The position numbers and the translations under genes were made by a program. From Nemertoderma westbladi (Eukaryota > Animalia > Xenacoelomorpha), in NCBI GenBank assembly GCA_032718475.1, contig JAUCBJ010000989.1:49339-113338 (forward strand): a stretch of DNA of 64,000 nt. The letters are read 5' to 3'. The notes under the pieces are model-generated. The model made no database searches. It saw only the letters and a program-made list of their open reading frames with translations, and was not told where the DNA came from. Numbering within the stretch: position 1 is the first letter of the stretch; each line of letters starts with the position of its first letter. This document shows positions 694-58,871 of this stretch, in pieces.

Positions 694-1917
694 TGTTCGC
701 GCTTTCAGACCTTTGGCAGTTTAACCCGCCAAATTAGGATGTCTTCTAGATAATAAATCGCTTTTAGCCTCTGACAAGTATTTGATTCACTACACTAGTC
801 GAAACCAATCTGTGCGCGATCATTCACCCGCTGGATATACCCGGGAGATTGACTTCGACGGCTTAATCTTATTGCTATGTAAGCCTAATGTATTATTCGA
901 CTGACAGTATTATATAATCTCTGACAATATTATTCACCTTCGGGGAATATTAACAGTTCCTTTTGGACGTGGCGCTCTATCTATATAAACAGAGCTATGA
1001 CTTAAACTACATGCAACGATATGGCTTAGTTATAATTCACATATATGGCGCATTCTTTAGGAAATGCTTCGTTATCAGTCTCACTCATACACAATGCTGC
1101 ACAATACTGCACACTGATCTGCCGATCTTCACTGATTTTAGTCACATATAAAAGGAACACAGACCGACTCATGTAGGGTCTATCAAATAACATTAGATTC
1201 ACTTCAAACCACTTTAACATAAGTCGCAATCGTTATATGTAACCTGTCTCTCTTACCTTCGGTATATCAAGAATATTGGGTTTTCGGGGTTATTTCTCGT
1301 TATTCCAAATATAATATTTCATCAACCATATAATGAAGAACCGACAGTAAATAGCAGAATAACAATATAAAAGGATGTACGATAAGATATATGCATTGCC
1401 CAGTTGAGTATATTAAGTTAAGACAATCAGATTTGTTTTGATTTGATTTGATAACGGATATATGTCCTTATAATTAAGCCTACTAGTGTTAGGCTAAAAG
1501 CAGAAAAACACAAATATTCCAAAAGCCGTTCTTTCCTGGCTCAGGACCGAAATGTAAACACTGCCCATAATGCATTGCGTGATTTCTAGGAAATTTCTGT
1601 ACAAGAGCAATAAAAACGCTCTGATTGGTTGACTGAACTAAGAGACACCGTAGAACAAAGAAAATCGACACGTATGCAGATCAGCTGTTAACCGTCGTCA
1701 TAGTAACTACTGTTTCACGAGGATCCAGCTACTTTGCGTCATAGAATTGCCATAGAATCACCAACCATGTCTTCCAAAGTACACATACGGAAGAAATAGC
1801 CCTTAGGTCATCCAAAAAACACCGATACAGCAATAATACGGCTTCTTACGCCTACTAAACCAACTACAGAGTATTTTAAGGGAAAAATAACCGGGCAATT
1901 CCGCAAAAGCTTTTACA
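694..1917 (-). repeat. 3' LTR of BEL copy 1
   Basis: Direct repeat of 17925-19148; three substitutions noticed by eye. Confidence 0.97.
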
Positions 1918-1927
1918 CCGCTCCCAG
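1918..1927 (-). promoter_or_regulatory. Polypurine tract of BEL copy 1
   Basis: Element-sense ctGGGAGCGG immediately before the 3' LTR TGTAAAAG; same sequence in copy 2 (57700-57709). Confidence 0.7.
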
Positions 1928-1994: not shown

Positions 1995-4900
1995 TTAGTC
2001 TTTCTTACGCGGACGGCGTTTACGCAGTTTCTTGAGGTTAGCAAGAGTCCTTTTCTCTTTGGGGCGAGCCACTTTACTAGGAGGGCTGTAGCTCCTAGGC
2101 GAAGGGTGCAATATAATTGCATCAGAAGGTGTAGGGTTACGATCGGTATACCCTCCGGTCGAAGTACCTGGTTGATCGATATCAACCTCAGTGGAACGAG
2201 GTCTAACGGCCTTTAGAGCACGTCTCAGGAAGGCAGCTCCCACGGGTCCCTGACGGGTCGTCTGGACACTAGCGGTGGGTGGACCGTGAGTGGTGAGGAA
2301 CTTTCTCGGTTTAATGGTTCTCTCCAGCTCGCGTTCTCGGGTTCGATATTCATATGGTCGCCGAGATACTTCCTGTAGTCCAGGATGCGAGTTCACAAAG
2401 ATGTCGCCATACTCAGGGTCCTGACGGATAAAATTGATCAGGTGATATGTGGTTATATCATTAGGGTTAACGTTTCTAAGGTATTTTCTGACAAACTTGG
2501 TGGAAATACACTCACCAACACGCTTCATCAACTCATAACTCGGTACGCGTGTTTTCTGTTCAATCGACGCGAATAGATAAGGATGGAACGCGTAAACTCC
2601 CTCGTAAGCTCGTCCAGGGTAATAGTGATGTCGGGATTCGCAATGTAAATCCGCGTTCGCTTCCCAAGCTCGGATGTATCGCAGGGTGATCATCTCGTCT
2701 ACGCTCTCTAAATCGCGATTAAAGGGACAATTGTAACTTTCATGTCCTTTAAGTTGACAGTAGTGACATTGAGTCATAAATTGTGGGCAGACGGCAAAAA
2801 TATGAGAGTTATTAAGTCTGCAATAAGCACAATATATTTCCATCATCGGTTGTTCGAGGAAATAGGAACAAGGTACGTTTGAGTCTAGAGGGGTGAAGTG
2901 GTCTCTCGATGCGCATAATCGACAACGTTTTCGAGAAACATAGTTGGCGTGTCGATAATCGTACGCTGTGAGACGTTGTGGACCTTGATACCACTCTATG
3001 ACATAATCATTATCACTGCTCCGGGAAGCTGTAGGCTGAATCGCTTCTGATTCCAAGCATACTGGCTCATCCTCCAGCTGCATAGTCGAAGTGGGTGCGT
3101 CTGTCTCAGTAAGTGGACCCACTGTCTGTATTTCCACGACAGAATAACCTGTAGGTATTCGGGGTCTTTGTATAACAGATGAATGTAAGTTCTGTATACA
3201 AACGTCTTGAAAAACGGCAAATCCAGCGCTACTCAGTTTCTCCGCAGCTGAGTCTCTCAGACTGAGTTTGGTCAGCGCGCGGTCCTTGAACTGACTATCG
3301 ACGTTACGGAACGGAGTCAGAAAGCGCCGGAAACATTCGAAACGTATAAACTTATTATGTTCGTCTAACTTGGCGAGTTTGGTTCCAAGTATTAATGGAT
3401 GAGCGCGTATGGTACGACTGCACACATCGGCTAGCCAACCGGCAAGTGCTGCGTTTTCAAAGATCGTGTATATAGCTAAGGAAGGGCGAAGTGGAACACT
3501 CATAAAGCTATATACGGCACCAGGCGCAGATAATGGTCCATCAAAATATAAACGAGAGTAATGATCTCCATATACTTGCTGGTAATTGATAGGATTTCCA
3601 ACTTTGAAATTCCATCCATATTCTTGAAAGGCAAGATGTCCGATGGATGTCCGTTGTACTTTAGTAATGCCGCTGGGTGTATTGGCATACATCGTGCGAA
3701 AGAAACCTCGGCCTTCGGCCCAAGGAGCAATCAGCTGAGTATCAACGAAAGGGTATGGAATGTTTTCCATATTCCGAAAGTCGTTTTGGAGATCTCCATA
3801 AACAGCTGAGCCGATTTTCAGGATTTTTTCGTTAAACAACATTTCGAGCACAGGTTGGGGTAACATTGATCCATCGATACCCATGGCCGGTTTGCGCTCG
3901 GTGTCGGTGACGTAACGCTGCGCGAGCTCGAATTGTCCATGTCGAAGTTTCTTTTGTGTCTCCGTAAGAGTTTCAAAAGAATAATCAATCACGTCGGAAC
4001 ACGCTCGAGTGAATACGTGGGTAGAACCAGCGAGTCCTCGTATATGTATCATTCGCGTAGTTCCTAGTTCTCCAACCGGAACGCTACCTTCGTTGTCATA
4101 AGTAACAACGCCATACATCTCGATAACGTTAAGAGTCTCGTTCCATTCCTTAGTGGCGTTTTCGAGAGTCATTCCCACTGGATGCCACAAAGTAGCGCAT
4201 TCGCTAGCATTGGGTAAGTCTCTATACTTTAAGCATTGTGTAGTATAGGTTTCCACATCTCCATATCGTTTTATTCTTTCTTCCTCGAATAACACGTCAA
4301 GATTCCAGTGCACTAATCGAGTTTTAATGAATCCATCAAGATTGTACGGAGGTAATATTTCTTTCTCTATTCTAGAAATATTATACGGTTTTCGAAATGA
4401 GTTTAGTTTAACTAGCTGATCTAGATGTTTTTGTAGTTGTTCGAGTTCGACAAGATCGAGAGGATTGATTAATGGTAGAAACCTCAGACTATGCGTAGGA
4501 TCTTCCGGTTTTACCATGTAATATTGCTTTAAATTGACGTAATAAGGGTGATCCTTAATTCCATAAAATGAGTCCGGCAAAGGTCTAGCGCATATGTTAA
4601 CATCGTGCACCATGCGACGGACAAGATCTGCTCTATTGTCCGGAGGCTCAACGAGTACACCATCGACACGAGCAGCCTCGATGGGTGGACGTTGTAGCAT
4701 GGGAGCGTCAGCAATGAGCTCTTGAGATCTGAGATCGGTATTAACCGGTTGAGGCTGTACCGTAGCAAAGAGCTTGTCTTTAAAATGAGGAACCATCGAG
4801 GGGTGGAGGATCGTTTTGGAATAGAGATCCGTCACGAGAATTTGAGCTTCTGGTTGGGCTAAAGCTGCTTCTTCCCTCTCATTCAGCTCTATATGTCTCT

Positions 4901-6248
4901 CCTCGAGCTGATTTTCCTCCGCTTGTTGTTGCAAGCGCTCGTCCAGGAATTCCTGTAAAGAGTAGGTGCGTCCACGTTCGATGTCCTCCTCTAGATTTTG
5001 TATTTCTCTATCGAACTGGGGTAAAGCTAGTTCTTTCACCGCTTGGACTTGTTGTTGCAATTTACGTTTCTCCAAGCAATCGTAAGTTCCTTTTCCGATT
5101 TTCTGCCGAATAGCGTCCAATGCATTTCGTATCACGCTCTCTTCGACTTCTGTAACAGGTTGGATCGGAGGGAGGCCAGGACGGTTGTAGGGGTTAAACG
5201 GTGATATTAGATGACCGCGTCCTAGTCCAGCGAGGTAAGGTTGGCGAATATCTAACGAACCCACTACCGGAGTGCCACCAATCAACTGTTCAGGTAACAC
5301 TAGATCTTTGAACAGTGAGTACAGCTCGGGAGGATCCGTAATACTATTAGGATCGAGAGTTTGAGGTATCACTTGGGAATGAGGAGGTCTGACCGAGTAT
5401 TCCGGAACTCTGATCATGGGTTTATTCAATGATCGCTTAAGGCGCGCGACCGTAGGTGATACGTCGAAAAGGTTTCGCTCGAAACTCCCATAAGTATATC
5501 GCGTAAAACTGTGTTTAGCGCAACGTCTCCGCGGATGTTTATGCCTTTCGATTTGCTGGTTAGGTCTAGGGCATTCGTCACAGTAATACCAAAGACGCAC
5601 GTCTTGAAGGGGAAACGCGGGTGATCGCTCTCCAGTTTTACAATATTCCTCCATCTGTTCGAAGCTATCTGGAACGACAGGTAGTGGTCGATCGGCGGTA
5701 AGATACATCATCGTAAAATAGAGCCGTTTGAGTTCCATCATAGGGTCTGGATGTATACCTTGAGGATATCGAGTTTCGAGGTTTTGTTGACTGGCAACAT
5801 TGAGATAGGTCTCTCTTAGGAATTCTAGATAATCGTTGAAGTCGCTACGTTTATCAGGTTCTTCAACGTCTTCCCTTTCGAGTCTGTTTCGAATAGAGTT
5901 CTCGTGTTCTATTCTCGATTTATCGTTTCGACTCCGCTGGGTATGATATTTAAATAAAACCATTTCCCTTTCGGTGTCTACATCGTCGGTGTCGTGTAAA
6001 TCAATAGGATGACCAGTAGTCAAGAAGTCCATATACGTACCATTACGATGCGTATAGCGAGCGGTGAATTTTCTATAGTCCAATTCACGCGTAAGTTGCT
6101 CCTGGGACATTGGCGGTTCGATATAACGACCATCGTCCTCCGTAGTAGTTGGATCAGCGTCGCCGCGTATCAAGCTATCGACAAACGCTTGTAAAGGTAG
6201 AGTATATCTCTCCCTGATACCAAGATCATCTTCTATTAATTCAGTCAT
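1995..6248 (-). CDS. BEL ORF2, 1417 aa: putative DEDDy 3'-5' exonuclease + 3 CCHC zinc knuckles + basic C-terminal NLS-like tail
   Basis: ExoI-like VVTYDNEG (~aa 714-721), LPQPVLEMLFNEKILKIGSAVYGDL (ExoII-like), FVDTQLIA, SIGHLAFQEYGWNFK, ExoIII-like YTIFE (~aa 927-931); CRLCASRDH..C, CAYCRLNNSHIFAVC, CHYCQLKGHESYNC; ends KKLRKRRPRKKD; no obvious signal peptide or TM segment. Confidence 0.8.
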   Translation of the reverse strand: MTELIEDDLGIRERYTLPLQAFVDSLIRGDADPTTTEDDGRYIEPPMSQEQLTRELDYRKFTARYTHRNGTYMDFLTTGHPIDLHDTDDVDTEREMVLFKYHTQRSRNDKSRIEHENSIRNRLEREDVEEPDKRSDFNDYLEFLRETYLNVASQQNLETRYPQGIHPDPMMELKRLYFTMMYLTADRPLPVVPDSFEQMEEYCKTGERSPAFPLQDVRLWYYCDECPRPNQQIERHKHPRRRCAKHSFTRYTYGSFERNLFDVSPTVARLKRSLNKPMIRVPEYSVRPPHSQVIPQTLDPNSITDPPELYSLFKDLVLPEQLIGGTPVVGSLDIRQPYLAGLGRGHLISPFNPYNRPGLPPIQPVTEVEESVIRNALDAIRQKIGKGTYDCLEKRKLQQQVQAVKELALPQFDREIQNLEEDIERGRTYSLQEFLDERLQQQAEENQLEERHIELNEREEAALAQPEAQILVTDLYSKTILHPSMVPHFKDKLFATVQPQPVNTDLRSQELIADAPMLQRPPIEAARVDGVLVEPPDNRADLVRRMVHDVNICARPLPDSFYGIKDHPYYVNLKQYYMVKPEDPTHSLRFLPLINPLDLVELEQLQKHLDQLVKLNSFRKPYNISRIEKEILPPYNLDGFIKTRLVHWNLDVLFEEERIKRYGDVETYTTQCLKYRDLPNASECATLWHPVGMTLENATKEWNETLNVIEMYGVVTYDNEGSVPVGELGTTRMIHIRGLAGSTHVFTRACSDVIDYSFETLTETQKKLRHGQFELAQRYVTDTERKPAMGIDGSMLPQPVLEMLFNEKILKIGSAVYGDLQNDFRNMENIPYPFVDTQLIAPWAEGRGFFRTMYANTPSGITKVQRTSIGHLAFQEYGWNFKVGNPINYQQVYGDHYSRLYFDGPLSAPGAVYSFMSVPLRPSLAIYTIFENAALAGWLADVCSRTIRAHPLILGTKLAKLDEHNKFIRFECFRRFLTPFRNVDSQFKDRALTKLSLRDSAAEKLSSAGFAVFQDVCIQNLHSSVIQRPRIPTGYSVVEIQTVGPLTETDAPTSTMQLEDEPVCLESEAIQPTASRSSDNDYVIEWYQGPQRLTAYDYRHANYVSRKRCRLCASRDHFTPLDSNVPCSYFLEQPMMEIYCAYCRLNNSHIFAVCPQFMTQCHYCQLKGHESYNCPFNRDLESVDEMITLRYIRAWEANADLHCESRHHYYPGRAYEGVYAFHPYLFASIEQKTRVPSYELMKRVGECISTKFVRKYLRNVNPNDITTYHLINFIRQDPEYGDIFVNSHPGLQEVSRRPYEYRTRERELERTIKPRKFLTTHGPPTASVQTTRQGPVGAAFLRRALKAVRPRSTEVDIDQPGTSTGGYTDRNPTPSDAIILHPSPRSYSPPSKVARPKEKRTLANLKKLRKRRPRKKD

Positions 6249-6295
6249 ATCTGCTATACGAGTTCACCAATATTATAATGAGTTTATATATTTGT

Positions 6296-7906: not shown

Positions 7907-10900
7907 TTAAGTTGGGGAGCCCCTAGATGTCGGTTGGATTAGGGAAGTGGTCGTGGGAAGAGTTTCTTGCCTTCCATAGTTTCCGGAGAGCTCTCTGTCT
8001 CTTTCCAGTAAACATAAACGACCCACTGGGCGGTTGAGCTGTTGAGTCTCAAAGACTATCCCTGGTTTCTTAAAGTTACGCCGCATGACGACGAGTTCTA
8101 CTGATCGCACCAAACCATCGCTCGAGATATGAGTCTCGATGATACGACCTGTTTGCCATCGCTTACGTGGGAGATCGGGGTCCACAATAAGCACCATGTC
8201 TCCAGCGCTGACGTTTTCTTGCTGCGCAAACCACTTAGTTCGAAGTTGTAGAGTGGGCAGATAATGTTTCTCGAAATGGTCAGCGAAACGACGGGATAGC
8301 AACTGCATAAGTTGCCAGGTTCGACGGCAGTACTCGTCTCCGTCTGTGATCTCCGATCGTGGGAGCATGGCTACGGGTTTCTTCAGTAGAAAGTGCGCGG
8401 GTGTTAGCGCTTCCAGGGAATCAGGACTTGAAGAGACTGGCATAAGCGGTCTTTCGTTGAGATAGGCGGCGATTTCCTCCATTAACGTCCGCAATAGTTC
8501 GTCGGTGAGATAAGCGCGACAAGGTACGATAAAGTGGAACGCAGTCTTCACGCTCCTAATCAATCTCTCCCAACTTCCTCCCCACCAAGGGGCATCGGCG
8601 GCGTTGAAGGTCCAGCTAGACGCTGTTATCTTTAGCTGATCGTCCACCTGTCTTTGGTTCCAGTCCTTTACGTAAGCTTGAATTTCGTTGTTGGCGCCAA
8701 TGAAGTTCGTTCCCTTATCCGATCTCATCGTGTTACTAGTTCCGAAGCGAGCGATCTGCCGTCGTAAACTTAACACAAAGCTGTTGGTAGATAGATCGTT
8801 CACCATATCGAGATGGATAGCTCTACAAGTCATACAAACGAAGATGACACACCATCTCTTGACTATAGTCCTGGCACGATATACTTCAATAGGGCCAAAT
8901 AAATCCACACCGGTATTATTAAAGGGTGGTTCATAGAAGCTTACTCTTTCCCTAGGTAATTCTGCCTCTCGCTGTGTTAAAGGCCTACTGAATGCTTTCC
9001 TACAGGGTATGCAGTTCCTAAGAACTTGGTTCAGAGCTCTACGAGGTTTATAAAAATAGTAGCGAGTTCGAATTTCGCTAAGCACTCGTTCTCTACCAGC
9101 ATGGTACAGTTTGCTATGGACATCTACAATCATCTTGATTTGTATGTCAAGATTTCTAATGAGTATGGGAAACTTAGTGTCAAAGGATAATGGGGCGTTG
9201 GTAAGCCTTCCTCCAACACGTATTAACCCATCTATCATTGTACTAGAGAAGCGATCCCTTAAGCGCATCTGCGGATTTCTTAACAACAGGAAATACTTAT
9301 CGGAATCCTCATAGCATTGTAGGAGTCTCAGCATCTGTTTGTTGGTTTCATCATGCTCCTGGTAACTGATCTTCTCCTTTAGAAACCTGTCGGATATCTT
9401 GTATTTGGGAAGATCTTTAACAACATGGACTCGTGCAGATGTCGATGGAGCATCATCACTATTGGTCTTTGTCCTGGAGTAACGATGATGAAAACATCGT
9501 TTTAAATATGTGACGGCTTTACAGAGCCGATTCCAGGAACTGTAGTGACGTATCGCTCTCTGCAGGAGAGGTGAGAGTCCTTGCGAGATATCTGGTATTC
9601 CAGATTTCCAATCCTTGTCACGGATTTCCAAGACTTCTTTATTCGTGGCGGTGGGTTTCTTATCCAAAGCATCATCTCCGGAAGTAAATAATACAGATAG
9701 ATCAACCGCAGGTTTAAACAATTTCGATTTACTCGCTCGAGTTTTAGGTTTAACTTTCTCCGCTCCCTTGGCCTGTCTGATCTCTGCTGTTGTGAGATGG
9801 GGAGGCCATTCTTCTTCTTCTCTGTAGAGGAAGTCGGGTCCACCTAACCATTCGGGAGTATTTACCAATTCCTTTGGAGTCGCTCCCCTGGAAGCGATGT
9901 CTGCTGGATTAATCATTCCGGGGCAATGTCTCCATTGATCCATCGTCGTGCGACTAAGTATGATGGCTACTCTGTTGGTAACGAAGACGCTGAACTGACA
10001 GACTTCATTGGTTATATACTCTAACACGAGTAAAGCATCGGTCCAATAGACAGTTTTCTCTAATGGATAGTCAATCTGTTCTGTTACATTCCGGCCGATG
10101 GCTGTAGCGTATAGAGCCGCCTTTAACTCCGCTCGATGAACTTTCAACTTGTTGTTGATTAATGCCTTAGAAGTAACCAAGGCGACTTTGATTCCATCCG
10201 TAGTTTCCACTCTTAGGTAGGCTACTATACCTATTCCCATATCGCTGGCGTCTCCAAACACATGGAGTTGATAGGAATACGTAGGGAGAACATGACCAAA
10301 ATATGAACGGGAAATTATAAAATCCTCGATAGCCGGCAGAGAATCTTCCCATTTCATCCACTTCTTTAATAATTCTCCCTTAAGTGGATCGTCCCATGAG
10401 TGGTTTGCCAGCCACATTTGTTGTACCAAACTCCGTGCAATCAATATAACTGGGCTAATAAATCCTAATGGATCGAAATAAGTGCTCAGTATACTTAAAC
10501 AAATCCGTTTGGTTCGAACTGGATTATCTCGCTGTTTTAGCTGGAAAAACAGGATATCTGTGTCCCATTTCAAGCCGAGTGTCTTGGTTTCTGGCAGATC
10601 ATCTTTGATCAAATCTAGATCTTTTGCCCCTCGATCTTCCGCAGGGATCGACTCCAGAAACTCACGGGAGTTGCTGGTGAATTTCGTTAATCGAAACCCA
10701 CCTCCTTTTAAGCACTCTACCGTTCCTTTAGCGACCTCAATGGCTTCTTCAACTGATGGAAGGGACTTCAGGTTATCGTCCATGTATATGTCCCGTTTGA
10801 TGTTGTCGATCACTTCCTTAGAGAAGGCTTCTCGGTTGTCATCTGCAGTGGTACGCACTACCGAACAGGCGTTGGAAGGGCTTGAGATTATCCCAAAGGC

Positions 10901-13900
10901 CTGGATGGTCATCCAGTACTCCACCGGTTTCTGGTTGAGGTCTCCTTCGGGCCACCACAGAAATCGTAGACTATCTCGATCCCTATCTAGCACCTTGACT
11001 TGTAAGAACATGCCTTCTATATCGGAGGCGAAAGCAATCGAATATTGTCTCAATCTTAAAAGAATTCCCAACAAAGATTGAAGTAAGTTGGGTCCGGGTA
11101 ACAATTCAGAGTTAAGGGATTGACCCATGTAAAGAGCGGAGCCATCAAACACTACTCTCACTTCATGTGGTTTACCGGGTTTAGGAACGTAATGGTGAGT
11201 TAAGTAATACGTTCTTTCAGTCACAGGTGTTTCTTCCGGTACTCTCTCCGCGTATCCCTTACTAATAAATTTCTCCAGCTGTGTTTGATACATTTCTTTA
11301 GCTGAAGAATTAGCCGTAAGGCGTCGATGGAGTTGCGCGATTCTTTTTTCCGCCAAGGGTCTGTTATTGATGAACTTCGGTTCTCTCTTGCGGAAAGGTA
11401 GACCGACTTCGTACCTACCTTGATCTTTGAGGAAACGTGTAGTTGTCTCTTGGATCTGCTTGGCCCTTTCCTCTTCCACCGATAAGGCTTTATCGTAGGA
11501 ATTGGGCTCTACCGCCTCTTGCGTTAAGAATCGTACGGCATGTTCATCTCGAGTCTGGGCATTATAACGCTCAATGACGTCATTTAACTCGTCGTTATAA
11601 GCTTCTCATTCAGATGGATAGAGAAGTTGACATAAGTTCACTTGGTTTTGCCAAGCCTCGTTTTCCTTAAGGAGATCGATGGTATTCTCCTCATCAAAAA
11701 GCTGGTGAACGTTGTCGTTATCTGAGGAGTATGGAGTTCCCTCAGTTAGATCGTCTCCCTCACTAGTATCATCTTCCCATTCACTCACCTGGCAGACGCG
11801 ATCTTGCGGTAGTCTTTCTCTGAGTGTTCTTCGGGAAGGTCCAGTAAGGTACCAACCTACTCTAGTTCTTACCGCATAGGTCTGAAGTGGTTGCGGTTGA
11901 GCAGGTCGTTTCTCTAATGTCTCCAGCGCCTCATGCGCGTTTTGACCGATTAATATTTGTACTCCAGGATAATCGGTGTCGAATCTAGGGATGTCAAGTT
12001 GGTGGACATGATCATCTTCGTCCCAATTATAAGGTTCCACTTGGGTGGTAGCGAAGTTCTTTATTGCCACCATTTTGACTGACCTGATACTGTGTTCTCC
12101 TAGTTTATCCTGTGGAGTGGACAACTCACCTATATAATAGTCGGCAGCTACAGTAGATTTCCAAACCTGCATGATTCCTGACATATTTAGCTTGGTTCGG
12201 AACTTGGGTTGTCCAGCGAAGATGTCTTCGGCTAGTTCTTTATCAATGAATGTTCCTGTGCGGCCGGAGTCCAGGAGGGCGTTCACTATATAGCTCTTCT
12301 GAGGTCCATGGACCCGTAACTGGACTACAGGAAATTCTCGGATTCCTACATCGGAAGTTGGTGCTTTCCAAGATTGTTGTTGATCCGAAGTAGTTAAGGT
12401 AAAGTCGTTGTCTGTATTTTTTTCATACATGAGCGCTCGATACACAGCGGTATTTATCATATAGCAGGATTCGTTTTCGTCGGAGAACTCGTCCGTATAG
12501 AATCCTTCCATCTCAGAACCTTGGTCGGTGTCGTTCACATCACTGAATTGGACATGTAATTCGGAATCGCTTACCTGACTCGGGTTGGTTCGCTCGAATT
12601 CAGTGTGCAACAAGAGATGATGCTTCGCACCACACTTAGCACACCTTATGTCAGAGTAACAGGTTCGCCGTTGATGTCCTTGTCTGAGACAATTGTAACA
12701 CAACCGCTTATCCCACATGACGTCCCGTCTCTCTTTTAATGATTTCTTTAAGAATTCATCGCACATATTCAAGCGGTGAGTCCCGTCACATAGTACACAT
12801 TTAGGTTTGATGTTACTGACCTTATTTTGGGTGACATTGTGCACACTCGTTCTTTCTTCTGACTTTCTCACCTGAATTCTTTTAGGAGACGTAGGAGGGG
12901 TTTTTCGTACCGGTTCCCTTCTGTCATTGGGTCGAGACTTGGATTTACTTACCTGGTCTTTAGGCATTTTATTGACATAATAAGATCTATCAGTGTCTTT
13001 TCCGCTATCCTCTCCTTGAGAAGTCTGGCTTTCGCCATTGTCGGTATAACACACTGGTGTTACTTTTCTCCTGGAAAGGGGTTTCTCACTTACCTTGTTT
13101 TCCGGTGTCTTCTCTCTGGACTGCTTGAGGAGTTGCAATTTCACTTCTCCATCCAAGAATGACATGAGATCAGCCATGGTAGGGTCTCGTCATTGTTGTT
13201 CCATCATATATAGTACTTTCTTATCCCAGCGTGTGCCTACCCCGCCTTTCGGTAAAGTAGAAGCCACAGCTCCAATGACCATAGAACTTTGGTATTCATG
13301 AGACTTACCTAACCAATCTAATTGTCTACAGATCTCTTGAATCTCATCGGAAAACTCTATTATCCCACTGCTGATGAACTTTCTGGGCGCTACTAATTTT
13401 GCATATAAATACTTAGCGATATTATTCCTATTACCATACTTGATGTTCAGTGTGTCCCAAACTTGTCTTAATCCGTCTGGATGTCCAATAAACTTTAACG
13501 CCATTGACTTGGGAGATCCTTCCAAGCACTCGATGAGGAATCTAAGTTTCTCTCCGTTGGATAGCACAGAGTCCTGTATGTTATCTTTATAATATTCATT
13601 AAAAGGTAACCATTTCATCTCATCTCCATTAAACTTGACGATCTCTCCAACCTTTACCGCTTGCCGGGCTTCGGTTCTAGCCATTTGTCGTGTAAAACTT
13701 TCTTGGGCCATCGTATTATTGAATAGAGAATTATCGGTATATAAATTTCTCGGATTATGATCAGGTCTATATGGAATATCGCTGTCAACAGGTCTATAAT
13801 TACCCTTAATAGGGTTTACTATAGGAGTTTCTACTTCGCTAGCAGTATAGATGCGTGTAGGCTCCACACCTTGCGCATGGGATACTTCAGACCTAACGGG

Positions 13901-15964
13901 TTGACACATTGTTACAGAGGGTGGTGGTATACCCTTTTGTAAATTTACTAATTTATCGCGTTCTAACGCGATACTTTGCTGCACTTCTTGCAACTCTAGT
14001 TTACTTTCCCTTACTGTCCCCTTGAGTTGGTGGACAGTCTCCTGCATCTGTCCGAGCAGGAGACTCATCCCTCGCCGCCCCTCATCTACCCAATCCACCG
14101 CCGAAGCGGGATCCGCCAACGTCGTAGCGGGCAGACGAGGGACCACGGGCGATAAATCCATTCGCTCGGAGTCCATGACAGGAACCGTTTCAAGGGCTGT
14201 TCTACTAGGCAAAGATGGCACAGATAGTTTTGTGCTGTGCAAAGGGAATCTAGAGCTTGTTTCCGGGAGTACAGGTGTCTCTAGCACCGAAGGGTTGGCT
14301 TCGAGAACAGGCCTAATTATTTCAGGCTCATCTACTATAGTAGGGAGTCTGTTTACAGTAATCTGGTCTGTGGGTTCTGTACTACCTACGGCTGTGCTAG
14401 CTAATTGTCTTCTAACAGCAGGGGGCAAATGGGGCAATTTATGACGGTGAGATGTTTTCCTACGCCTGCTGAGACGAGATCTATTTCCTCCGCTTTCAGG
14501 ATCGGTGGTATCTCCCTCTTCTGATGATGTATAACCTTGGCGTTTGGAAGTAGATCGATTCATCATCTGCATTCGATTATCAGTTAACTTTTTATTTATG
14601 TGGTCTTGCGTCTCTTGCAGATTTTCCAACTCTAGTTGGGTAGCCTCTTCAGACGCTCTTCATTCGGCTTCTACCATTGCCTCTGCTGCTTTTCTGTCTG
14701 CTTCGGCCGCCTTTCTGTCTGCTTCGGCCGCCTTTCTGTCTGCTTCGGCCGTTGCTATTGCCGCTGCTACTGCTGCTGCCTTTCTGTTTTCTATCTGCCT
14801 TTTCTTTACTTGTTCTTCTTGGGCTCTAGCTATGCTGAGACGTTCATCAAATTTAGCTTGGTTTGCAGCTAACATTTCAGTATCGATTGCGTCCAACACA
14901 TGCTTGGCTCCCTCACTATTAGGGGAAAGTCCAGCCAGCCGCCTCCTCAACTCATCGTCTCCTAGAAATCGCTGATAGTCGGACAAATAAATGTCAATAG
15001 CGTCTCTAGTTCGCGGCTTCTCTGCTGCTATTACTTCGCTTTCCACTTGAGAAAAGGTGGCATCGGTTAATTCTTCATAGTGGTAGGGGCGCTCAGCCAA
15101 CTGAGCCTTCCACCTGTCGGTTTCTTGAACCTTGAGGCTCACCCGCTGGAACCAAGTCTTGACAGGAACTTGCAACGACGTGTCCTGCTTTCTTTTGGAT
15201 GTTTCTTCAAAAGCTGATAGGATGAGTCTAATGCGTAGAGTTCTTTCGCGTACTTGATAAAGCAGCTTTTCCTGCTCTTGAGGTCCTCGTTGTTGTTGAA
15301 ACAGTTGTTCTTCTAATCACTCCAAAGAACCGAAGAACCCTTGTACATATCCAGCTGCCGACCTCTTCCAAACAGCTGGATCAACGGTGTCCTCAGCCAC
15401 TCCCATCCGGTGTATATCATCCCAGGTGGCTTCTGACAGGTTAAACGGGAGTCCGAGTCCCGGGAAGTTCCATTGTGATTCGACAATGGACATCAGTTCT
15501 TCCTTCGAATATCCCGCATAATCATCTTTAGTCGACTGCCCACTTCTAACCCAATCATGTTGGTGTTCTTCTACCGCAACTAACACCGTAGTGAGTACTG
15601 CTGCCGGAAGAACTAGAAGGGGGTCCTCGTAAACCGTATCCGCCATCTTCGCTCCGCGTTCGGGCATTAACTCAACAGTATCCGAACTACTGGAGCTATC
15701 GGGCCGCTGAGAACTAGGTTCTTGGCTAGGAGGTTGCTGCTGATTGGCAGCTGCTTCTTGATCCCGCTTGACTTGGGCCCGCGTGCCGATGATAGACCTA
15801 TGGTGTTGGATTAGCTTAGGGTCTGATATCACTACAGGAGGGATAACCTTCCTTACAGTAGGAGGTGAGCTGAACTTAGGTCTCGTCGGTTCCACACCCC
15901 TATCTGAGTCACAGATGGTGGTATCTAGAGGACTGTCTGATAGGTTCTGCTTTGTGTCAGACAT
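7907..15964 (-). pseudogene. BEL/Pao gag-pol (2686 codons, one frame) with four in-frame TGA stops
   Basis: ORF pieces 15964-15317, 15175-14660, 14629-13190, 13177-11606 and 11479-7907 share one frame and are colinear with the intact 2731-aa copy; motifs LLDSG, YMDD, FGDAS, GVDLFGP/SDKGTNF/WERLIRSVK. Confidence 0.93.
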
Positions 15965-17913: not shown

Positions 17914-17924
17914 ATATCCGTTAT
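17914..17924 (-). promoter_or_regulatory. Non-tRNA primer-binding-site equivalent (ATAACGGATAT)
   Basis: Abuts the 5' LTR end; no TGG; complementary to LTR-internal element-sense ATATCCGTTAT (plus-strand 1451-1461; 18682-18692 with one G:U); followed by a 9-bp hairpin at 17886-17908. Confidence 0.6.
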
Positions 17925-19148
17925 TGTTCGCGCTTTCAGACCTTTGGCAGTTTAACCCGCCAAATTAGGATGTCTTCTAGATAATAAATCGCTTTTAGCC
18001 TCTGACAAGTATTTGATTCACTACACTAGTCGAAACCAATCTGTGCGCGATCATTCACCCGCTGGATATACCCGGGAGATTGACTTCGACGGCTTAATCT
18101 TATTGCTATGTAAGCCTAATGTATTATTCGACTGACAGTATTATATAATCTCTGACAATATTATTCACCTTCGGGGAATATTAACAGTTCCTTTTGGACG
18201 TGGCGCTCTATCTATATAAACAGAGCTATGACTTAAACTACATGCAACGATATGGCTTAGTTATAATTCACATATATGGCGCATTCTTTAGGAAATGCTT
18301 CGTTATCAGTCTCACTCATACACAATGCTGCACAATACTGCACACTGATCTGCCGATCTTCACTGATTTTAGTCACATATAAAAGGAACACAGACCGACT
18401 CATGTAGGGTCTATCAAATAACATTAGATTCACTTCAAACCACTTTAACATAAGTCGCAATCGTTATATGTAACCTGTCTCTCTTACCTTCGGTATATCA
18501 AGAATATTGGGTTTTCGGGGTTATTTCTCGTTATTCCAAATATAATATTTCATCAACCATATAATGAAGAACCGACAGTAAATAGCAGAATAACAATATA
18601 AAAGGATGTACGATAAGATATATGCATTGCCCAGTTGAGTTTATTAAGTTAAGACAATCAGATTTGTTTTGATTTGATTTGATAACAGATATATGTCCTT
18701 ATAATTAAGCCTACTAGTGTTAGGCTAAAAGCAGAAAAACACAAATATTCCAAAAGCCGTTCTTTCCTGGCTCAGGACCGAAATGTAAACACTGCCAATA
18801 ATGCATTGCGTGATTTCTAGGAAATTTCTGTACAAGAGCAATAAAAACGCTCTGATTGGTTGACTGAACTAAGAGACACCGTAGAACAAAGAAAATCGAC
18901 ACGTATGCAGATCAGCTGTTAACCGTCGTCATAGTAACTACTGTTTCACGAGGATCCAGCTACTTTGCGTCATAGAATTGCCATAGAATCACCAACCATG
19001 TCTTCCAAAGTACACATACGGAAGAAATAGCCCTTAGGTCATCCAAAAAACACCGATACAGCAATAATACGGCTTCTTACGCCTACTAAACCAACTACAG
19101 AGTATTTTAAGGGAAAAATAACCGGGCAATTCCGCAAAAGCTTTTACA
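17925..19148 (-). repeat. 5' LTR of BEL copy 1
   Basis: 1224-bp direct repeat of 694-1917, flanked by TSD. Confidence 0.97.
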
Positions 19149-31273: not shown

Positions 31274-31297
31274 TTATTATAAACTTACGTGACTCTC

Positions 31298-40045: not shown

Positions 40046-41207
40046 TGTAAAAGCTTTTGTGGGATAACTGATTCGTTTGCCTTGCTAACCAGTTCCCCCC
40101 AGGCGCTAGAATACTCTAAAAAGGGATCTATAACTCGAATAGCGCAAGCTACCGGCTGATTGGCTGATTCGCTGTGCGAAGGGATCTGAGCTACGTTTGA
40201 TTGTCCAACCAGCTTGGGAAAGTTGCCCCACAGCCCTGCTTTCTGTATCTGCCAATAGGATTTGAGTTGATTTTGATTTCGACCTATCACAGATCTACTG
40301 AACTGAATTTTCCTATCTGTATGCTCTTTCTCTGTGTTGGGTGGAAGCCTTTGTAAATAAGGTTATTCTTATCAGTTTTCAGTGTTGTTGGTCTTTCTTC
40401 CTGAGCCAAGGAAGAACGGCCTTGGAAATATTTTGTGCCTTTTCTGTTTTAGTCTAACACTAGTAGGCTTAATTATAAGGACATATATCCGTTATCAAAC
40501 TAATGAACACACTGAATCACTGTGCATACGTTTATATTGTTATACTGCTATTTACTGTCAGTTCTTCATAATATGGTTGATGAATTATTATATTTGGAAT
40601 AACGATAAATAACCCCGAAACCCAATATTCTTGATATACCGAAGGTAAGAGAGAAAGGTTACATATAACGATTGTGACTTATGTTAAAGTGGTTTGAAGT
40701 GAATCTAATGTTATTTGATAGACCCTACATGAGTCGGTCCGTGTTCCTTTTATATATAACTAAAATCAGTGAAGATCGGCAGATCAGTGTGCAGTATTGT
40801 GCAGCATTGTGTATGAGTGAGCCTGATAACGAAGCATTTCCTAAAGAATGCGCCATATATGTGAATTATAACTAAGCCATATCGTTGTGAGTAGTTTAAG
40901 TCATAACTCTGTTTGTATAGATAGAGCGCCACGTCCTAAAGGAACTGTTAATATTTCCCGAAGGTGAATAATATTGTCAGAGATTATATAATACTGTCAG
41001 TCGAATAATACATTAAGCTTACATAGCAATAAGATTAAGCCGTCGAACCCAATCTCCCGGGTATATCCAGCGGGTGAATGATCGCGCACAGATTGGTTTC
41101 GACTAGTGTAGTGAATTAAATACTTGTCATAGGCTAAAAGTGATTTATTATCTAGAAGACATCCTAATTTGGCGGGTTAAACTGCCAAAGGTCTAAAAGC
41201 GCGAACA
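40046..41207 (+). repeat. 5' LTR of BEL copy 2
   Basis: TGTAAAAG...GCGAACA; repeat of 57710-58871. Confidence 0.97.
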
Positions 41208-41315
41208 ATAACGGATATATATTCTGTATTGCAGTGTAGGCATTAAATACAGTTTAATATTGTTCTGGTAAGAACAATAACGGATATCGCTTCTTTATTG
41301 CAGTAAGCAATAAAG
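41208..41315 (+). promoter_or_regulatory. Duplicated non-tRNA PBS-equivalent plus hairpin module
   Basis: ATAACGGATATAT (41208-41220) is complementary to LTR 40483-40495; second ATAACGGATAT at 41277-41287; each is followed by a hairpin. Confidence 0.6.
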
Positions 41316-43517: not shown

Positions 43518-46500
43518 ATGTCTGATACTAAGCAGAACCTGTCAGACAGTTTATTAGATGTAACTATCTGCGACTCAGATAGAGGCGTAGAACCGTCTAG
43601 TCGTAAGTTCAGTTCACCTCCCACTGTGAGGAAGGTCATCCCTCCAGTAGTAATAAAAGAACCTAGGCTGGTCCAACATCGTAGGTCTATCATAGGCACT
43701 CGAGCTCAGGTCAAGCGGGACAAAGAAGCAGCGGAACAGCAACAACCCGCGAGCCAAGAACTTACTTCTCAACGGCCCAACAGCTCCAGTAGTGAGGATA
43801 CTGTAGAACTGACACCAGAACGCGGAGCAAAGATGATGGATGCGGTTTATTCGGATCCCCTTCTCATCCTTCCTGCAGCCGTACTCACTAGGTTATTGAT
43901 CGCTGTGGAAGAACACCAGATCGATTGGGCGAGAAGCCAGCGTTCAACTAGAGATAGTTATGCTGGATACACAAGGGAAGAACTGAAGTCCATGGTCGAG
44001 TCGCAATGGAACTTCCCCGGACCCGGACTCCCGTTTGATTTATCAGAAGCTGCCTGGGAAGACATACACCTGATGGGAGTAGCCAAAGAAACCATAGATC
44101 CCGCTGTGTGGAAGAGGTCCGCAGCCGGATACGCACAGGGATTCTTCAGCTCTATGGAGCGAGTAAAAGGAAAACTGTTTCAACAACCACAAGGACCTCA
44201 AGAGCAGGGACAACTGCTTTATCAAGTTAGAGAAAGAATTCTACAAATCAGGCTAATATTATCGGCCTTTGAGGAGGCTTCTAAACGAAGACAAGACACG
44301 TCGTTGCAAGTTGCCGTAAAGACTTGGTTTCAAAGGGTGAGTCTCCAGGTTCAAGGAACAGCTCAGTGGAAAGCTCAGCTGGAGGAGCGCTCAACCCATG
44401 GAGAATCAACAGACGCTACTTTTTCCCAAGTGGAAAGTGAAGCGACAGCAGAGAAACCGCATAAGAGGGATGCCATTGACATCTATCTGTCAGACTATCA
44501 ACGTTTTTTAGGTGATGACGAGTTGAGGAGAAGGTTAGATGGACTTAGCCCTAATAGCGAAGGAACTCAGCGTGTGTTGGATGCCATCGATGTGGAAATG
44601 AGGGCTGCGAATCAGGCTAAATTTGATGAACAACTCCGCCTGACACGAGTCCAAGAAGAACAAGTAAAGAAAAAACGTATAGAAGACAGAAAGAAAGCAG
44701 CAGTGGTAGCTGCAGAAGCAAAAAGAAAAGCGGTAGCGGCAGAGGCAGCGGCAGAGGCAAAAGCGGCCGAAGCTGAAAGAAAAGCGGCAGCGGCAGCGGC
44801 AGAAGCAAAAGCGGCCGAAGCTGAAAGAAAGGCGGCCGAGGCTGAAAGAAAGGCCGCAGAGGCAGCGGCAGCGGCAGAAGCAAAGGCGGCCGAAGCTGAA
44901 AGAAAGGCGGCCGAGGCTGAAAGAAAGGCCGCAGAGGCAGTGGCAGATGCCGAACGGAGAGCGACTGAAGAAACCACCCAATTAGAATTGGAAAACATTC
45001 AGGAGAATCAAGACTGCATAAATAAACAGTTAACAGCTAGTAATATGCAGATGATGAATCGATCTACTCCCAAAAGACAGGGATATACATCATCTGAGGA
45101 AGGCGATACCACCGATACTGAAGGCAAAGGAAATAGATCTCGTTTAAGCAGACGTAAAAGAACATTCCACCGTCAGAAATTGCCTGATTTGCCTCCAGCT
45201 GTTAGAAGGCAACTAAATAACACCAACTTAGGTAGTACAGAGCCCACAGACCAAACAATTAAAATAGAAAGACTCCCTACGATAGTAGATGAGCCTGAAA
45301 TAATTAGGCCTGTTCTTGAAATCACCCCTTCGGTGATAGACACACCTGTGCTCCCTGAGACTACCTCTAAATTCCCTCTGCATAGCACTAAGCTACCTGT
45401 GCCCCGTAGAACTGCCCAGGAGACAGTTCAGGTCCTGGACCCCGAGCGAAATATTCATAATTTGTCGCCCGTTGTCCCTCGTCCGCCCGCTACAACGTTG
45501 GCGACTCCCGCTTCGGCGGTCGAATGGGTGGATGAGAGACGGCGGGGGATGGATCTCCTGCTCGGGCAGATGCAGGAGACTGTCCAGCAATTCAAGGGCA
45601 CAGTAAGGGAAAGTAGGCTAGAGTTGCAAGAAGTGCAGCAAAGTATCGCGCTAGAACGCGATAAATTAGTAAATACTCAAAGGGGTATACCACCACCCTC
45701 TGTAACAATGTGTCAACCTGTTAGGTCTGAAGTATCGCATGCGCAAGGTGTGGAGCCTACACGCATCTATACTGCTAGCGAAGTAGAAACTCCTATAGTG
45801 AACCCTATTAAGGGTAATTATAGACCTGTTGATAATGATATTCCATATAGAACTGATCATAATCCGAGAAATTTATATACCGATAACTCGATATTAAATA
45901 ACACGATGGCCCAAGAAAGTTTTACGCGTCAAATGGCTAGAACCGAAGCCCGGCAAGCGGTGAAGGTGGGAGAGATCGTCAAGTTCAATGGAGATGAGAT
46001 GAAATGGTTACCTTTTAATGAATATTACAAAGATAACATACAGAACTCTGTACTATCTAATGGAGAAAAACTTAGATACCTCATCGAGTGCTTGGAAGGA
46101 TCTCCCAAGTTAATGGCGTTAAAATTTATTGGACATCCAGACGGATTAAGACAAGTTTGGGATACACTAAACATCAGGTATGGTAATAGGAATAACATCG
46201 CTGGGTATTTGTATGCAAAGTTGGTAGCGCCCCGAAAGTTTATTAGCAGCGGAATTATCGAGTTTTCCGATGAGATTCAGGAGATCTGTAGACAATTAGA
46301 TTGGCTAGGTAAGTCTCAGGAGTATCAGAATGCTATGGTTATTAGAGCAGTGGCTTCTACTTTACCGAAGGGTGGAGTAGGTACACGCTGGGATAAGAAA
46401 GTGTTATATATGATGGAACAACAACGACGAGACCCTACCATGGCTGATCTCATGTCATTCCTAGATGGAGAAGTGAAATTACAGCTCCTGAAACTGTCCA

Positions 46501-49500
46501 GAGAGAAGACACCGGAAAACAAGGTAAGTGAAAAACCCGTCTCTAGGAGAAAGGTAACACCAGTGTGTTATACAGACGACGGCGAAAGCCAGACTTCTCA
46601 AGGAGAAGATAGCGGGAAAGACACTGATAGATCTTATTATGTCAATAAAATGCCTAAAGATCAGGTAAGTAAATTCAAGTCTCGAGCAAATGACAGGAGA
46701 GAACAGGTAAGAAAAACTCCTCCCACGTCTCCCAAGAGAATTCCGGTGAGAAAGCCCGAAGAAAAGGCAAGTGTACACAATGTGACTCAGATTAAGGTGA
46801 GTAACATCAAACCAAAATGTGCGCTATGTGATGGGACCCATCGCTTGAATATGTGTGATGAATTTCTAAAGAAATCATTAACTGAGAGACGTGAAGTCAT
46901 GTGGGACAAGCGGTTGTGTTATAATTGCCTCAGACAAGGACATCAACGGCGAACCTGTTACTCAGACATAAGGTGTGCAAAGTGTGGTGCGAAACATCAT
47001 ATCTTGTTGCACGCTGAATTCGATCGAAATAGTCCTAATCAGGTAAGTGATTCCGAACTACATGTCCAATTCAGTGATGTGAACGACACTGATCAATCTG
47101 AGATGGAAGGATTCTATACGGACGAGTTCTCCGACGAAAACGAATCCTGTTATATGATAAATACCGCAGTGTATCGAGCACTCACATATGAAAAGGATAC
47201 AGACAGCGACTTCACTCTAACTACTTCTGAACGACAACCATCTTGGAAAGAGCCATCTTCCAATGTAGGGATCCGAGAGTTTCCTGTGGTGCAAGTAAGG
47301 GTTCACGGACCTAAGAGGAGTTATGTAGTGAACGCCCTCCTTGACTCCGGTAGTACAGGAACATTCATCGACAAAGAGCTAGCCGAAGATATATTTGCTG
47401 GACAACCCAAGTTCCAAACTAAGCTCAACATGTCCGGCATTATGCAAGTTTGGAAATCTACAATAACAGCGGATTATTATGTAGGAGCGTTGTCCACCCC
47501 CCAGGACGAACTAGGAGAACATAGCATAAGGTCAGTGAAAATGGTGGCTATAAAGAACTTCGCTACTACTCAAGCAGACCTTTATAATTGGGACGAGGAT
47601 GAGAGCATCCAACATCTTAACATACCTCGATTCCAGACTGATTATCCTGGAGTGCAAATACTCATCGGCCAAAACGCGCATGAGGCGCTGGAGACATTAG
47701 AGAAACGGCCTGCTCAACCGCAGCCACTACAGACCTATGCGGTAAGAACTAGAGTAGGTTGGTACTTTACTGGCCCTTCCCGTAGAACACTCAGAGAAAG
47801 ACTACCGCCAGAGAGCGTCTACCAGGTGAGTGAATGGGAAGATGATACTAGTGAGGGAGACGATTTAACTGAGGGAACCCCATACTCCTCAGATAACGAC
47901 GACGTTCACCAGCTTTTTGATGAGGAGAATACCATCGATCTCCTTAAGGAAAACGAGGCTTGGCAAAACCAAGTGAACTTATGTCAACTTCTTTATCCAT
48001 CTGAACGAGAAGCTTATAACGACGAGTTAAATGACGTCATTGAGCGTTGTAATGCCAAGACTCGAGATGAACATGCCGTACGATTCTTTACGCAAGAGGC
48101 GGTAGAGCCCAATTCCTACGATAAAGCCTTGTCGGTGGAAGAGGAAAGGGCCAAGCAGATCCAAGAGACAACTACACGTTTCCTCAAAGATCAAGGTAGG
48201 TATGAAGTCGGTCTACCTTTCCGCAAGAAAGAACCGAAGTTCATCAATAACAGACCCTTGGCGGAAAAAAGAATCGCGCAACTCCATCGACGCCTTACGG
48301 CTAATTCTTCAGCTAAAGCAATGTATCAAACACAGCTGGAGAAATTTATTAGTAAGGGATACGCGGAGAGAGTACCGGAAGAAACACCTGTGACTGAAAG
48401 AACGTATTACTTAACTCACCATTACGTTCCTAAACCCGGTAAGCCACATGAAGTGAGAGTAGTGTTTGATGGCTCCGCTCTTTACATGGGTCAATCCCTT
48501 AACTCTGAATTGTTACCCGGACCCAACTTGCTTCAATCTTTGTTGGGAATTCTTTTAAGATTGAGACAATATTCGATTGCTTTCGCCTCCGATATAGAAG
48601 GCATGTTCTTACAAGTCAAGGTGTTAGATAGGGATCGAGATAGTCTACGATTTCTGTGGTGGCCCGAAGGAGACCTCAACCAGAAACCGGTGGAGTACTG
48701 GATGACCATCCAGGCCTTTGGGATAATCTCAAGCCCTTCCAACGCCTGTTCGGTAGTGCGTACCACTGCAGAGGACAACCGAGAGGCCTTCTCTAAGGAA
48801 GTGATCGACAACATCAAGAGAGACATATACATGGACGACAATCTGAAGTCCCTTCCATCAGTTGAGGAAGCCATTGAGGTCGCTAAAGGAACGGTAGAGT
48901 GCTTAAAAAGAGGTGGGTTTCGATTAACAAAATTCACCAGCAACTCCCGTGAGTTTCTGGAGTCGATCCCTGCGGAAGATCGAGGGGCGAAAGATCTAGA
49001 TTTGATCAAAGATGATCTGCCAGAAACCAAGACACTCGGCTTGAAATGGGACACAGAGCGAGATATTCTGTTTTTCCAGCTAAAACAGCGAGATAATCCA
49101 GTTCGAACCAAACGGATTTGCTTAAGTATACTGAGCACTTATTTCGATCCATTGGGATTTATTAGCCCAGTTATATTGATTGCTCGTAGTTTGGTACAAC
49201 AAATGTGGCTTGAAAACCACTCATGGGACGATCCACTTAAGGGAGAATTATTGAAGAAGTGGATGAAATGGGAAGATTCTCTGCCGGCTATCGAGGATTT
49301 TATAATTTCCCGTTCATATTTTGGTCATGTTCTCCCTACGTATTCCTATCAACTCCATGTGTTTGGAGACGCCAGCGATATGGGAATAGGTATAGTAGCC
49401 TATCTAAGAGTGGAAACTCCGGATGGAATCAAAGTCGCCTTGGTTACTTCTAAGGCATTAATCAACAACAAGTTGAAAGTTCCTCGAGCGGAGTTAAAAG

Positions 49501-57709: not shown

Positions 57710-58871
57710 TGTAAAAGCTTTTGTGGGATAACTGATTCGTTTGCCTTGCTAACCAGTTCCCCCCAGGCGCTAGAATACTCTAAAAAGGGATCTATAACTC
57801 GAATAGCGCAAGCTACCGGCTGATTGGCTGATTCGCTGTGCGAAGGGATCTGAGCTACGTTTGATTGTCCAACCAGCTTGGGAAAGTTGCCCCACAGCCC
57901 TGCTTTCTGTATCTGCCAATAGGATTTGAGTTGATTTTGATTTCGACCTATCACAGATCTACTGAACTGAATTTTCCTATCTGTATGCTCTTTCTCTGTG
58001 TTGGGTGGAAGCCTTTGTAAATAAGGTTATTCTTATCAGTTTTCAGTGTTGTTGGTCTTTCTTCCTGAGCCAAGGAAGAACGGCCTTGGAAATATTTTGT
58101 GCCTTTTCTGTTTTAGTCTAACACTAGTAGGCTTAATTATAAGGACATATATCCGTTATCAAACTAATGAACACACTGAATCACTGTGCATACGTTTATA
58201 TTGTTATACTGCTATTTACTGTCAGTTCTTCATAATATGGTTGATGAATTATTATATTTGGAATAACGATAAATAACCCCGAAACCCAATATTCTTGATA
58301 TACCGAAGGTAAGAGAGAAAGGTTACATATAACGATTGTGACTTATGTTAAAGTGGTTTGAAGTGAATCTAATGTTATTTGATAGACCCTACATGAGTCG
58401 GTCCGTGTTCCTTTTATATATAACTAAAATCAGTGAAGATCGGCAGATCAGTGTGCAGTATTGTGCAGCATTGTGTATGAGTGAGCCTGATAACGAAGCA
58501 TTTCCTAAAGAATGCGCCATATATGTGAATTATAACTAAGCCATATCGTTGTGAGTAGTTTAAGTCATAACTCTGTTTGTATAGATAGAGCGCCACGTCC
58601 TAAAGGAACTGTTAATATTTCCCGAAGGTGAATAATATTGTCAGAGATTATATAATACTGTCAGTCGAATAATACATTAAGCTTACATAGCAATAAGATT
58701 AAGCCGTCGAACCCAATCTCCCGGGTATATCCAGCGGGTGAATGATCGCGCACAGATTGGTTTCGACTAGTGTAGTGAATTAAATACTTGTCATAGGCTA
58801 AAAGTGATTTATTATCTAGAAGACATCCTAATTTGGCGGGTTAAACTGCCAAAGGTCTAAAAGCGCGAACA
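57710..58871 (+). repeat. 3' LTR of BEL copy 2
   Basis: Preceded by PPT GGGAGCGG, followed by TSD TTGGT. Confidence 0.97.

Follow-up and report, generated by a model that had tools for sequence, protein, structure and literature searches.

A candidate RNase D-type exonuclease gene in the env position of a BEL/Pao retrotransposon of Nemertoderma westbladi

We analysed a stretch of 64,000 nucleotides from the xenacoelomorph Nemertoderma westbladi (GenBank assembly GCA_032718475.1, contig JAUCBJ010000989.1, positions 49,339 to 113,338 of the forward strand), which is called the window below. The window contains two copies of one long terminal repeat (LTR) retrotransposon, copy A on the minus strand and copy B on the plus strand. 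In addition to gag-pol, both copies carry a gene, ORF2, which very probably encodes an RNase D-type exonuclease domain. An earlier reading of the same sequence (the original prediction) had proposed that this nuclease either matures the 3' end of a self-primer or counteracts small-RNA silencing.

The element and its additional gene

The element has the structural marks of BEL/Pao retrotransposons, namely TG...CA LTRs, a 5-bp target site duplication and a polypurine tract. Pfam searches revealed the BEL/Pao domain set in the intact 2731-aa gag-pol of copy B: DUF1759, protease, reverse transcriptase (RT) with YMDD, Pao-type Peptidase_A17/RNase H (PF05380), integrase, and DUF5641. The sequence thus supports a BEL/Pao LTR retrotransposon as the host element. 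An RT tree of 44 rows (copy B, 21 proteins, and 22 chosen from 80 BEL loci, the top-ranking 80 among the 431 loci of a metagenome scan that was incomplete) placed the element on a long branch without a close relative. The gag-pol of copy A contains four in-frame stops. The LTR pair of copy A differs at 3 of 1224 nt and is flanked by the duplication ACCAC, and a paralogous empty site at 28882-30257 confirms its insertion. The LTRs of copy B show no differences and are flanked by TTGGT.

The two copies are mosaic with respect to each other. The first ~370 nt of the LTR are unalignable (40046-40440 versus 18750-19148), the identity in gag is 78-90% (43400-47875), and pol, ORF2, and the remaining LTR are 93-99% identical. 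Since the identity differs by region, the pattern points to recombination between subfamilies. The 8-nt core of the polypurine tract is repeated in the spacer between pol and ORF2 (6936-6943 in copy A, 52672-52679 in copy B), with a third copy in pol; the spacer core is possibly an internal plus-strand start.

ORF2 of copy A is a frame of 1417 codons in the sense orientation, with pol ending 1.66 kb before it and the 3' LTR starting 77 nt after it, i.e., in the env position, as originally described. The original prediction had placed the ORF in both copies. The gene is indeed present in both, but its frame is intact only in copy A. A short deletion near codon 62 and a short insertion near codon 345 shift the frame of copy B in its first third, although the motifs described below are unchanged. 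Comparison of the copies over 1412 comparable codons revealed 109 synonymous and 36 non-synonymous differences, which gives a dN/dS of 0.089 (Fisher p 5e-43) based on two copies only. Evolution of ORF2 between the copies was therefore not neutral, the outcome on which the original prediction had depended, and because of this low ratio the sequences support purifying selection on ORF2 as a protein. The ratio was 0.04-0.10 in six of the seven ORF2 segments and 0.35 over the last 157 codons; it was comparable in the pol segments (0.05-0.13).

The combination of identical LTRs, an intact gag-pol, and a broken ORF2 in copy B suggests that ORF2 acts in trans or is dispensable, unless both breaks post-date the insertion. 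No relative of ORF2 was detected in the 80 BEL loci, although many of these contigs end too early to show absence. Viral and metagenome contigs also yielded none, and plasmids and phages gave chance-level matches only. Since copy B looks recently inserted with a broken ORF2 and relatives were found without ORF2, it is likely that ORF2 is an accessory gene that is not needed in cis.

A TATATAAA box is located ~40 nt upstream of the ORF2 ATG behind a GC-rich stretch in both copies, and the LTR carries a splice donor, AG/GTAAG. The single sequencing run X1 covered coding and non-coding parts alike and yielded no information on splicing, start sites, or covariation.

The probable RNase D-type domain of ORF2

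The RNase D-type motifs listed in the original prediction were all located between aa 717 and 931: YDNE at 717, LPQPV at 796, GDLQND at 818, FVDTQ at 834, SIGHL at 868, and YTIFE at 927. Downstream of them are three Cys/His knuckles. They had been described as three CCHC knuckles, but only that at 1161-1174 is canonical (CX2CX4HX4C), and those at 1140-1154 and 1109-1127 have the spacings CX2CX5HX4C and CX2CX4HX9C. The Cys/His cluster and the basic tail were found as described, at aa 223-246 and in the last 30 residues (14 K/R). The tail is a possible nuclear localisation signal. For the proposed coiled coil we found a charged helical stretch at ~395-465, judged by eye and not by a predictor. 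In agreement with the reported absence of a signal peptide and a transmembrane (TM) helix, the N-terminus is acidic and without signal-peptide appearance, and the top 19-residue hydropathy is 1.19.

A search of the ESM Atlas with aa 680-990 returned PF01612 in 25 of 30 matches (score 0.93), a result for which the error rates with protein parts are not established. Among 18,950 NCBIfam models, two RNase D models were the sole matches of the domain, both at aa 798-842 (E 0.0063 and 0.016). An exhaustive search of 1.84 billion representatives detected a single homologue (E 1.9e-5, 28% identity), an unnamed protein of 648 aa encoded on a 9.4-kb contig and referred to here as P0031. The two proteins have the same order of parts, exonuclease, knuckles, and basic tail, and P0031 contains the exonuclease in a more compact form. 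ORF2 and P0031 have in common the D-x-E, the Exo II aspartate, DTQ, Y-x3-E, three knuckles, which are near-canonical CCHC in P0031, and a basic end. P0031 itself matched PF01612 faintly in Pfam (E 0.2), and its nearest Atlas cluster combines PF01612 with zf-CCHC in Euglenozoa (0.86), which we take as a lead only. Word-index searches added no further homologue: that with aa 660-1260 found none among candidates of 779-2480 aa, and that with a two-row profile found only P0031 itself among candidates of 352-1134 aa.

We also searched 151 bacterial genomes with a three-row profile of copy A, copy B, and P0031, which gave 38 weak matches with E up to 1. Thirty-one were on the exonuclease part and seven on parts present only in P0031. 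All 12 exonuclease-part matches that could be checked, being in genomes with listed PF01612 places, overlapped PF01612 domains. When the profile was aligned by hhalign to 32 bacterial PF01612 domains, the probability was 90.7 and the score 47.8, compared with at most 24.2 in 40 column shuffles; with P0031 as the master, the score was 47.1 compared with at most 19.7 in 60 shuffles. The NCBIfam, bacterial profile, and hhalign results all depend on the Exo II core, so that they do not count as independent of one another. The spacing PL-x6-Y-x3-D/E was present in 24 of the 32 reference domains, at aa 919 of ORF2, and in P0031, and was absent from 41,501 aa of BEL polyproteins. An alignment of Exo I to DYSFE (aa 755) was dropped for that to YDNE, which the later RNase D comparison supports. 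The resulting candidate acidic set, D718, E720, D819, and E931, is D-E-D-E and is common to P0031. Two AlphaFold models had a mean pLDDT of 32.0 and 29.8, too low to assign a fold.

Several observations weigh against this assignment. Pfam and PDB searches with the whole ORF2 gave nothing, nor did Pfam with the domain alone, searches with parts of ORF2 yielded noise only, and every single profile match scores below the curated cut-offs. The top Atlas match of the domain belongs to a cluster without a name. Relaxed stringency is needed to bring Exo I and Exo III into register with RNase D. The pattern for Exo III was picked with the alignment in view and has a second match in ORF2, at aa 213, and the last acidic residue is glutamate (E931) instead of aspartate. 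Furthermore, the N-terminal 660 aa are as constrained as the remainder, and family searches with them gave only noise and no match.

Taken at the sequence level, these data make it very probable that ORF2 has an RNase D-type domain, although only motif II is statistically solid. The domain is probably also catalytically active. The original prediction had likened the domain to RNase D, WRN, and EXD. The homology to RNase D/PF01612 stands, but in a comparison made without a eukaryotic reference set the closest signal appears to be RNase D and not specifically WRN, EXD, or Mut-7. Like bacterial RNase D (TIGR01388, PF01612), ORF2 contains the Exo II core and the Exo III spacing; unlike it, ORF2 has no detected HRDC domain, carries insertions inside the domain, and scores far below the family cut-offs.

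Primer sites complementary to the LTR

Immediately downstream of the 5' LTR, the sequence is complementary to a segment of the element's own LTR. The match is 13 nt long in copy B (0 of 2000 shuffles). In copy A it is 11 nt long and is found in the 3' LTR (2 of 2000 shuffles), the 5' LTR having one change. The site does not begin with the tRNA-type TGG, as judged without comparison to a tRNA library. Self-priming of the element is supported as a sequence signature, as is the claim of a BEL element with a non-tRNA, self-complementary primer site. The element resembles Tf1 and Tj1 in this respect, whose primer sites are described as complementary to ~11 nt of their own LTR (passages of PMC7175516 and PMC4600332); the Tf1 self-primer of 11 bases is cut by RNase H alone according to a passage of PMC7175516. 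No report of BEL self-priming was found in the literature searched, i.e., titles, starts of abstracts, and passages, a scope that excludes Repbase entries and the subscription literature on Cer elements of nematodes.

Copy B has a second 11-nt core of the primer site at 41277-41287, within 41261-41312. It is preceded by a short hairpin that ends like the LTR end, and after it comes the hairpin found behind the single site of copy A. The predicted fold of 40483-41300 pairs the LTR segment with this second copy, the whole fold being not unusual (z -1.76).

A usable LTR pair was present in 11 of the 80 BEL loci, and these were searched for complementarity with one intron allowed. Among relatives with a known LTR end, the match was 15 nt in L019 (0 of 300 shuffles), 12 nt in L007 (1 of 300), 10 nt unspliced in L018 (6 of 300), and 7 nt in L003 (57 of 300), of which the LTR start is poorly delimited. 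The seven others, scored over 23-33 candidate ends with no shuffle control, gave 13 nt (L024), 11 nt (L008, L021, L026), and 7-8 nt (L015, L023, L035). Altogether, seven of the 11 relatives have an LTR-complementary primer site of 10-15 nt, and the gap between pol and the 3' LTR in them is 106-432 nt. In six of these seven, the match lies across a GTAAGT..AG intron in the own LTR, with the donor GTAAGT in all six. Some of the positive relatives are kin, and all are distant from the present element (RT identity <=45%). An earlier version of the test without splicing gave weak matches of 6-10 nt and was superseded.

Since seven of 11 relatives without room for ORF2 show the signature, ORF2 is not required for it. 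The proposal that the nuclease matures the 3' end of the self-primer is thereby weakened, also by the use of RNase H alone in Tf1, and the nuclease is probably not the primer-maker. We also considered a primer made from the trimmed 3' end of the RNA. Nothing supports it over a primer from the 5' side, and the relatives with spliced primers speak for a location near the 5' end. In this superfamily, self-priming signatures thus occur without the nuclease gene, and splicing often builds them.

Table 1. Positions of the features discussed, in window coordinates unless a locus handle is given.
Feature	Position	Strand	Remarks
3' LTR, copy A	694..1917	-	LTR comparison
Polypurine tract, copy A	1918..1925	-	abuts 3' LTR
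ORF2, copy A	1995..6248	-	intact, 1417 aa
Basic C-terminal tail	1998..2087	-	14 K/R in last 30 residues; P0031 end also basic
Three Cys/His knuckles (aa 1109-1174)	2727..2924	-	one canonical CCHC, two altered; P0031 has three at the matching place
Putative RNase D/DEDDy-type exonuclease domain (~aa 700-945)	3414..4151	-	Atlas, NCBIfam, profile, hhalign
Exo III, PL-x6-Y-x3-E (Y927, E931)	3456..3494	-	E where RNase D has D; E in P0031 too
Exo II region (aa 798-842, D819)	3723..3857	-	statistically supported core
Exo I motif YDNE (D718, E720)	4089..4100	-	assigned by order and low-stringency alignment to P0031 and RNase D
Charged Q/E/L-rich stretch (~aa 395-465)	4854..5066	-	possible coiled coil, judged by eye
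N-terminal Cys/His cluster (aa 223-246)	5511..5582	-	possible zinc site, without family match
TATATAAA box	6283..6290	-	possible internal promoter, kept in both copies
gag-pol, copy A (BEL/Pao)	7907..15964	-	four in-frame stops
Primer-binding site, copy A	17914..17924	-	non-tRNA, 11 nt; intact LTR match 1451-1461
5' LTR, copy A	17925..19148	-
5' LTR, copy B	40046..41207	+	identical to copy B 3' LTR
LTR segment complementary to primer-binding site, copy B	40483..40495	+	candidate self-primer
Primer-binding site, copy B	41208..41220	+	13 nt complementarity
gag-pol, copy B	43518..51713	+	intact, 2731 aa
ORF2, copy B	53364..57631	+	two frameshifts in first third
3' LTR, copy B	57710..58871	+
Spliced primer sites of relatives	L007:682-1100, L019:972-1410, L008:3490-4150, L021:847-1240, L024:966-1555, L026:1209-1645		11-15 nt

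Possible functions of ORF2

The rotifer elements Juno and Vesta are of the Ty3/gypsy type and not of the BEL/Pao type. As the original prediction had stated, extra DEDDy ORFs are known from bdelloid rotifers: passages of PMC5408684, PMC6431247, and PMC6338049 describe a DEDDy ORF3 in Juno, Vesta, and Athena/Terminon elements, with a DEED variant and undemonstrated activity. The nematode precedent also named there was found neither in the main text of PMC5408684 nor in our literature searches. ORF2 is like ORF3 of Juno and Vesta as described in PMC5408684 in that an RNase D-like gene without a TM domain occupies the env position and its acidic set has one D-to-E change. By description, ORF2 is set apart by its DEDE instead of DEED set, its 1417 aa, its C-terminal knuckles, and its 660-aa N-terminal half. 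The rotifer ORF3 variation that was tested (env and GDSL types) was neutral according to the same source, whereas ORF2 is under strong selection. The searches for ORF2 homologues returned none of the rotifer proteins, and no report of a DEDDy third ORF in BEL/Pao was found within the literature scope given above. The present sequences would extend the arrangement of a DEDDy gene in the env slot from rotifer Gypsy elements to BEL/Pao. Why LTR elements keep exonuclease genes in this slot has been an open question since the rotifer report, and the BEL/Pao case adds strong purifying selection to it.

The layout of ORF2 is similar to that of TbRND, the mitochondrial RNase D of Trypanosoma brucei, in which the Exo domain is followed by C-terminal CCHC fingers, a combination called very unusual in a passage of PMC7797062. 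In the same source, the fingers are reported to bind RNA upstream of the Exo site, and overexpression to lower the levels of guide RNAs. Unlike ORF2, TbRND is a cellular protein of ~350-380 aa with four fingers and a DEDD set. Its comparison with our profile gave a weak knuckle match (E 2.3); the likeness is one of architecture, and kinship is not implied. With ORF2, an intact gene is available whose candidate catalytic residues are named and whose layout is like that of TbRND, so that the question why LTR elements keep such genes can be addressed in vitro.

Because the layout matches that of TbRND, whose overexpression lowers guide RNAs, we favour a role of ORF2 as an RNA trimmer directed against silencing. 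ORF2 would be expressed from a separate mRNA, either via the TATA box before the ATG or by splicing from the LTR donor. D718, E720, D819, and E931 would bind two metal ions, the knuckles, as in TbRND, would bind the RNA at a point before the 3' end, and the predicted 3'-to-5' trimming would chew back single-stranded 3' ends. The substrates, the weakest step, may be host small-RNA guides or non-templated tails that mark the element RNA for decay, possibly in the nucleus. That ORF2 is a conserved accessory enzyme with RNase D-like and zinc-knuckle parts, working in trans against RNA-level silencing by the host, has in our estimate slightly less than an even chance; given the rest, the predicted anti-silencing role is reasonably likely. 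It is doubtful that the full proposal holds, i.e., that a BEL/Pao lineage encodes its own RNase D-zinc-knuckle enzyme, both active and nuclear, which shortens host small-RNA guides or destroys them, is shared in trans, and belongs to an otherwise unrecorded DEDE-type family. Should small RNAs be its targets, ORF2 would be a rare case of an animal element that encodes an enzyme for counter-defence. Two points speak against the role. The 3' ends of PIWI-interacting RNAs are often 2'-O-methylated and resist trimming. In addition, the rotifer DEDDy ORF3 has no unambiguous link to copy number in the passages of PMC5408684.

Alternatively, ORF2 may serve as an adaptor similar to Egalitarian or Maelstrom, whose nuclease fold is idle or weak and which binds the element RNA and routes it for export, transport, or packaging. 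The D-to-E change in Exo III is compatible with such a protein, and the three knuckles, the possible coiled coil, and the large constrained N-terminal half would suit a scaffold. A passage of PMC5408684 describes Maelstrom and EXD1 as derivatives of the DEDD type that are inactive but still bind RNA. However, ORF2 and P0031, which are 28% identical, agree at all four acidic positions and at the tyrosine of Exo III. This would be expected if the site works, and we consider the adaptor unlikely. Somewhat less likely still is that ORF2 trims the self-primer, chewing back an overhang to the 11-13-nt duplex, either once the folded-back RNA has been cut or starting at the RNA 3' end. The LTR-complementary primer sites, with their low shuffle counts, are in line with it. 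Moreover, the duplex starts flush with the LTR end, compared with 2-3 nt away from it in the relatives, whose LTRs are much shorter, and its LTR strand lies ~710 nt from that end, so that the lineage could need extra processing. These points are set against the complementarity of 10-15 nt in the seven relatives with short pol-3' LTR gaps, the sufficiency of RNase H for Tf1 (PMC7175516), and the apparently very recent insertion of copy B with a broken ORF2.

An action of ORF2 on DNA during reverse transcription, as an exonuclease for proofreading or polishing of cDNA ends, is quite improbable. WRN and the proofreading domains of polymerases belong to the DEDDy class (passage of PMC5408684), and two of the 12 checked bacterial matches are in frames of ~1000 aa, the size of Pol I; the frames of the other ten have the size of RNase D, ORF2 and pol are separate genes and not a fusion, and CCHC knuckles point to single-stranded RNA. 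The env position would also fit an envelope protein that has escaped recognition, or a host gene that was captured as a neutral passenger, and some BEL/Pao elements carry env-like genes (passages of PMC13524379 and PMC554778). Since ORF2 has neither a TM segment nor signal-peptide appearance, it is not likely to be env, and Pfam gave no fusion-protein match. Together with the exonuclease homology and the dN/dS of 0.089, this largely refutes both possibilities, to which we assign hardly any probability.

Other features were observed in the window. A Ty3/gypsy element at 30977-36116 has an intact ORF of 1497 aa, LTRs of 93% identity, and a TGG-type primer site. Two intron-less F-box ORFs of 484 aa (21869-23323 and 36919-38373; Pfam was run on the first) are 99% identical and lie in a segmental duplication. 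A pair of 80-bp inverted repeats ~280 bp apart at 63564-64000 is possibly a small non-autonomous DNA transposon.

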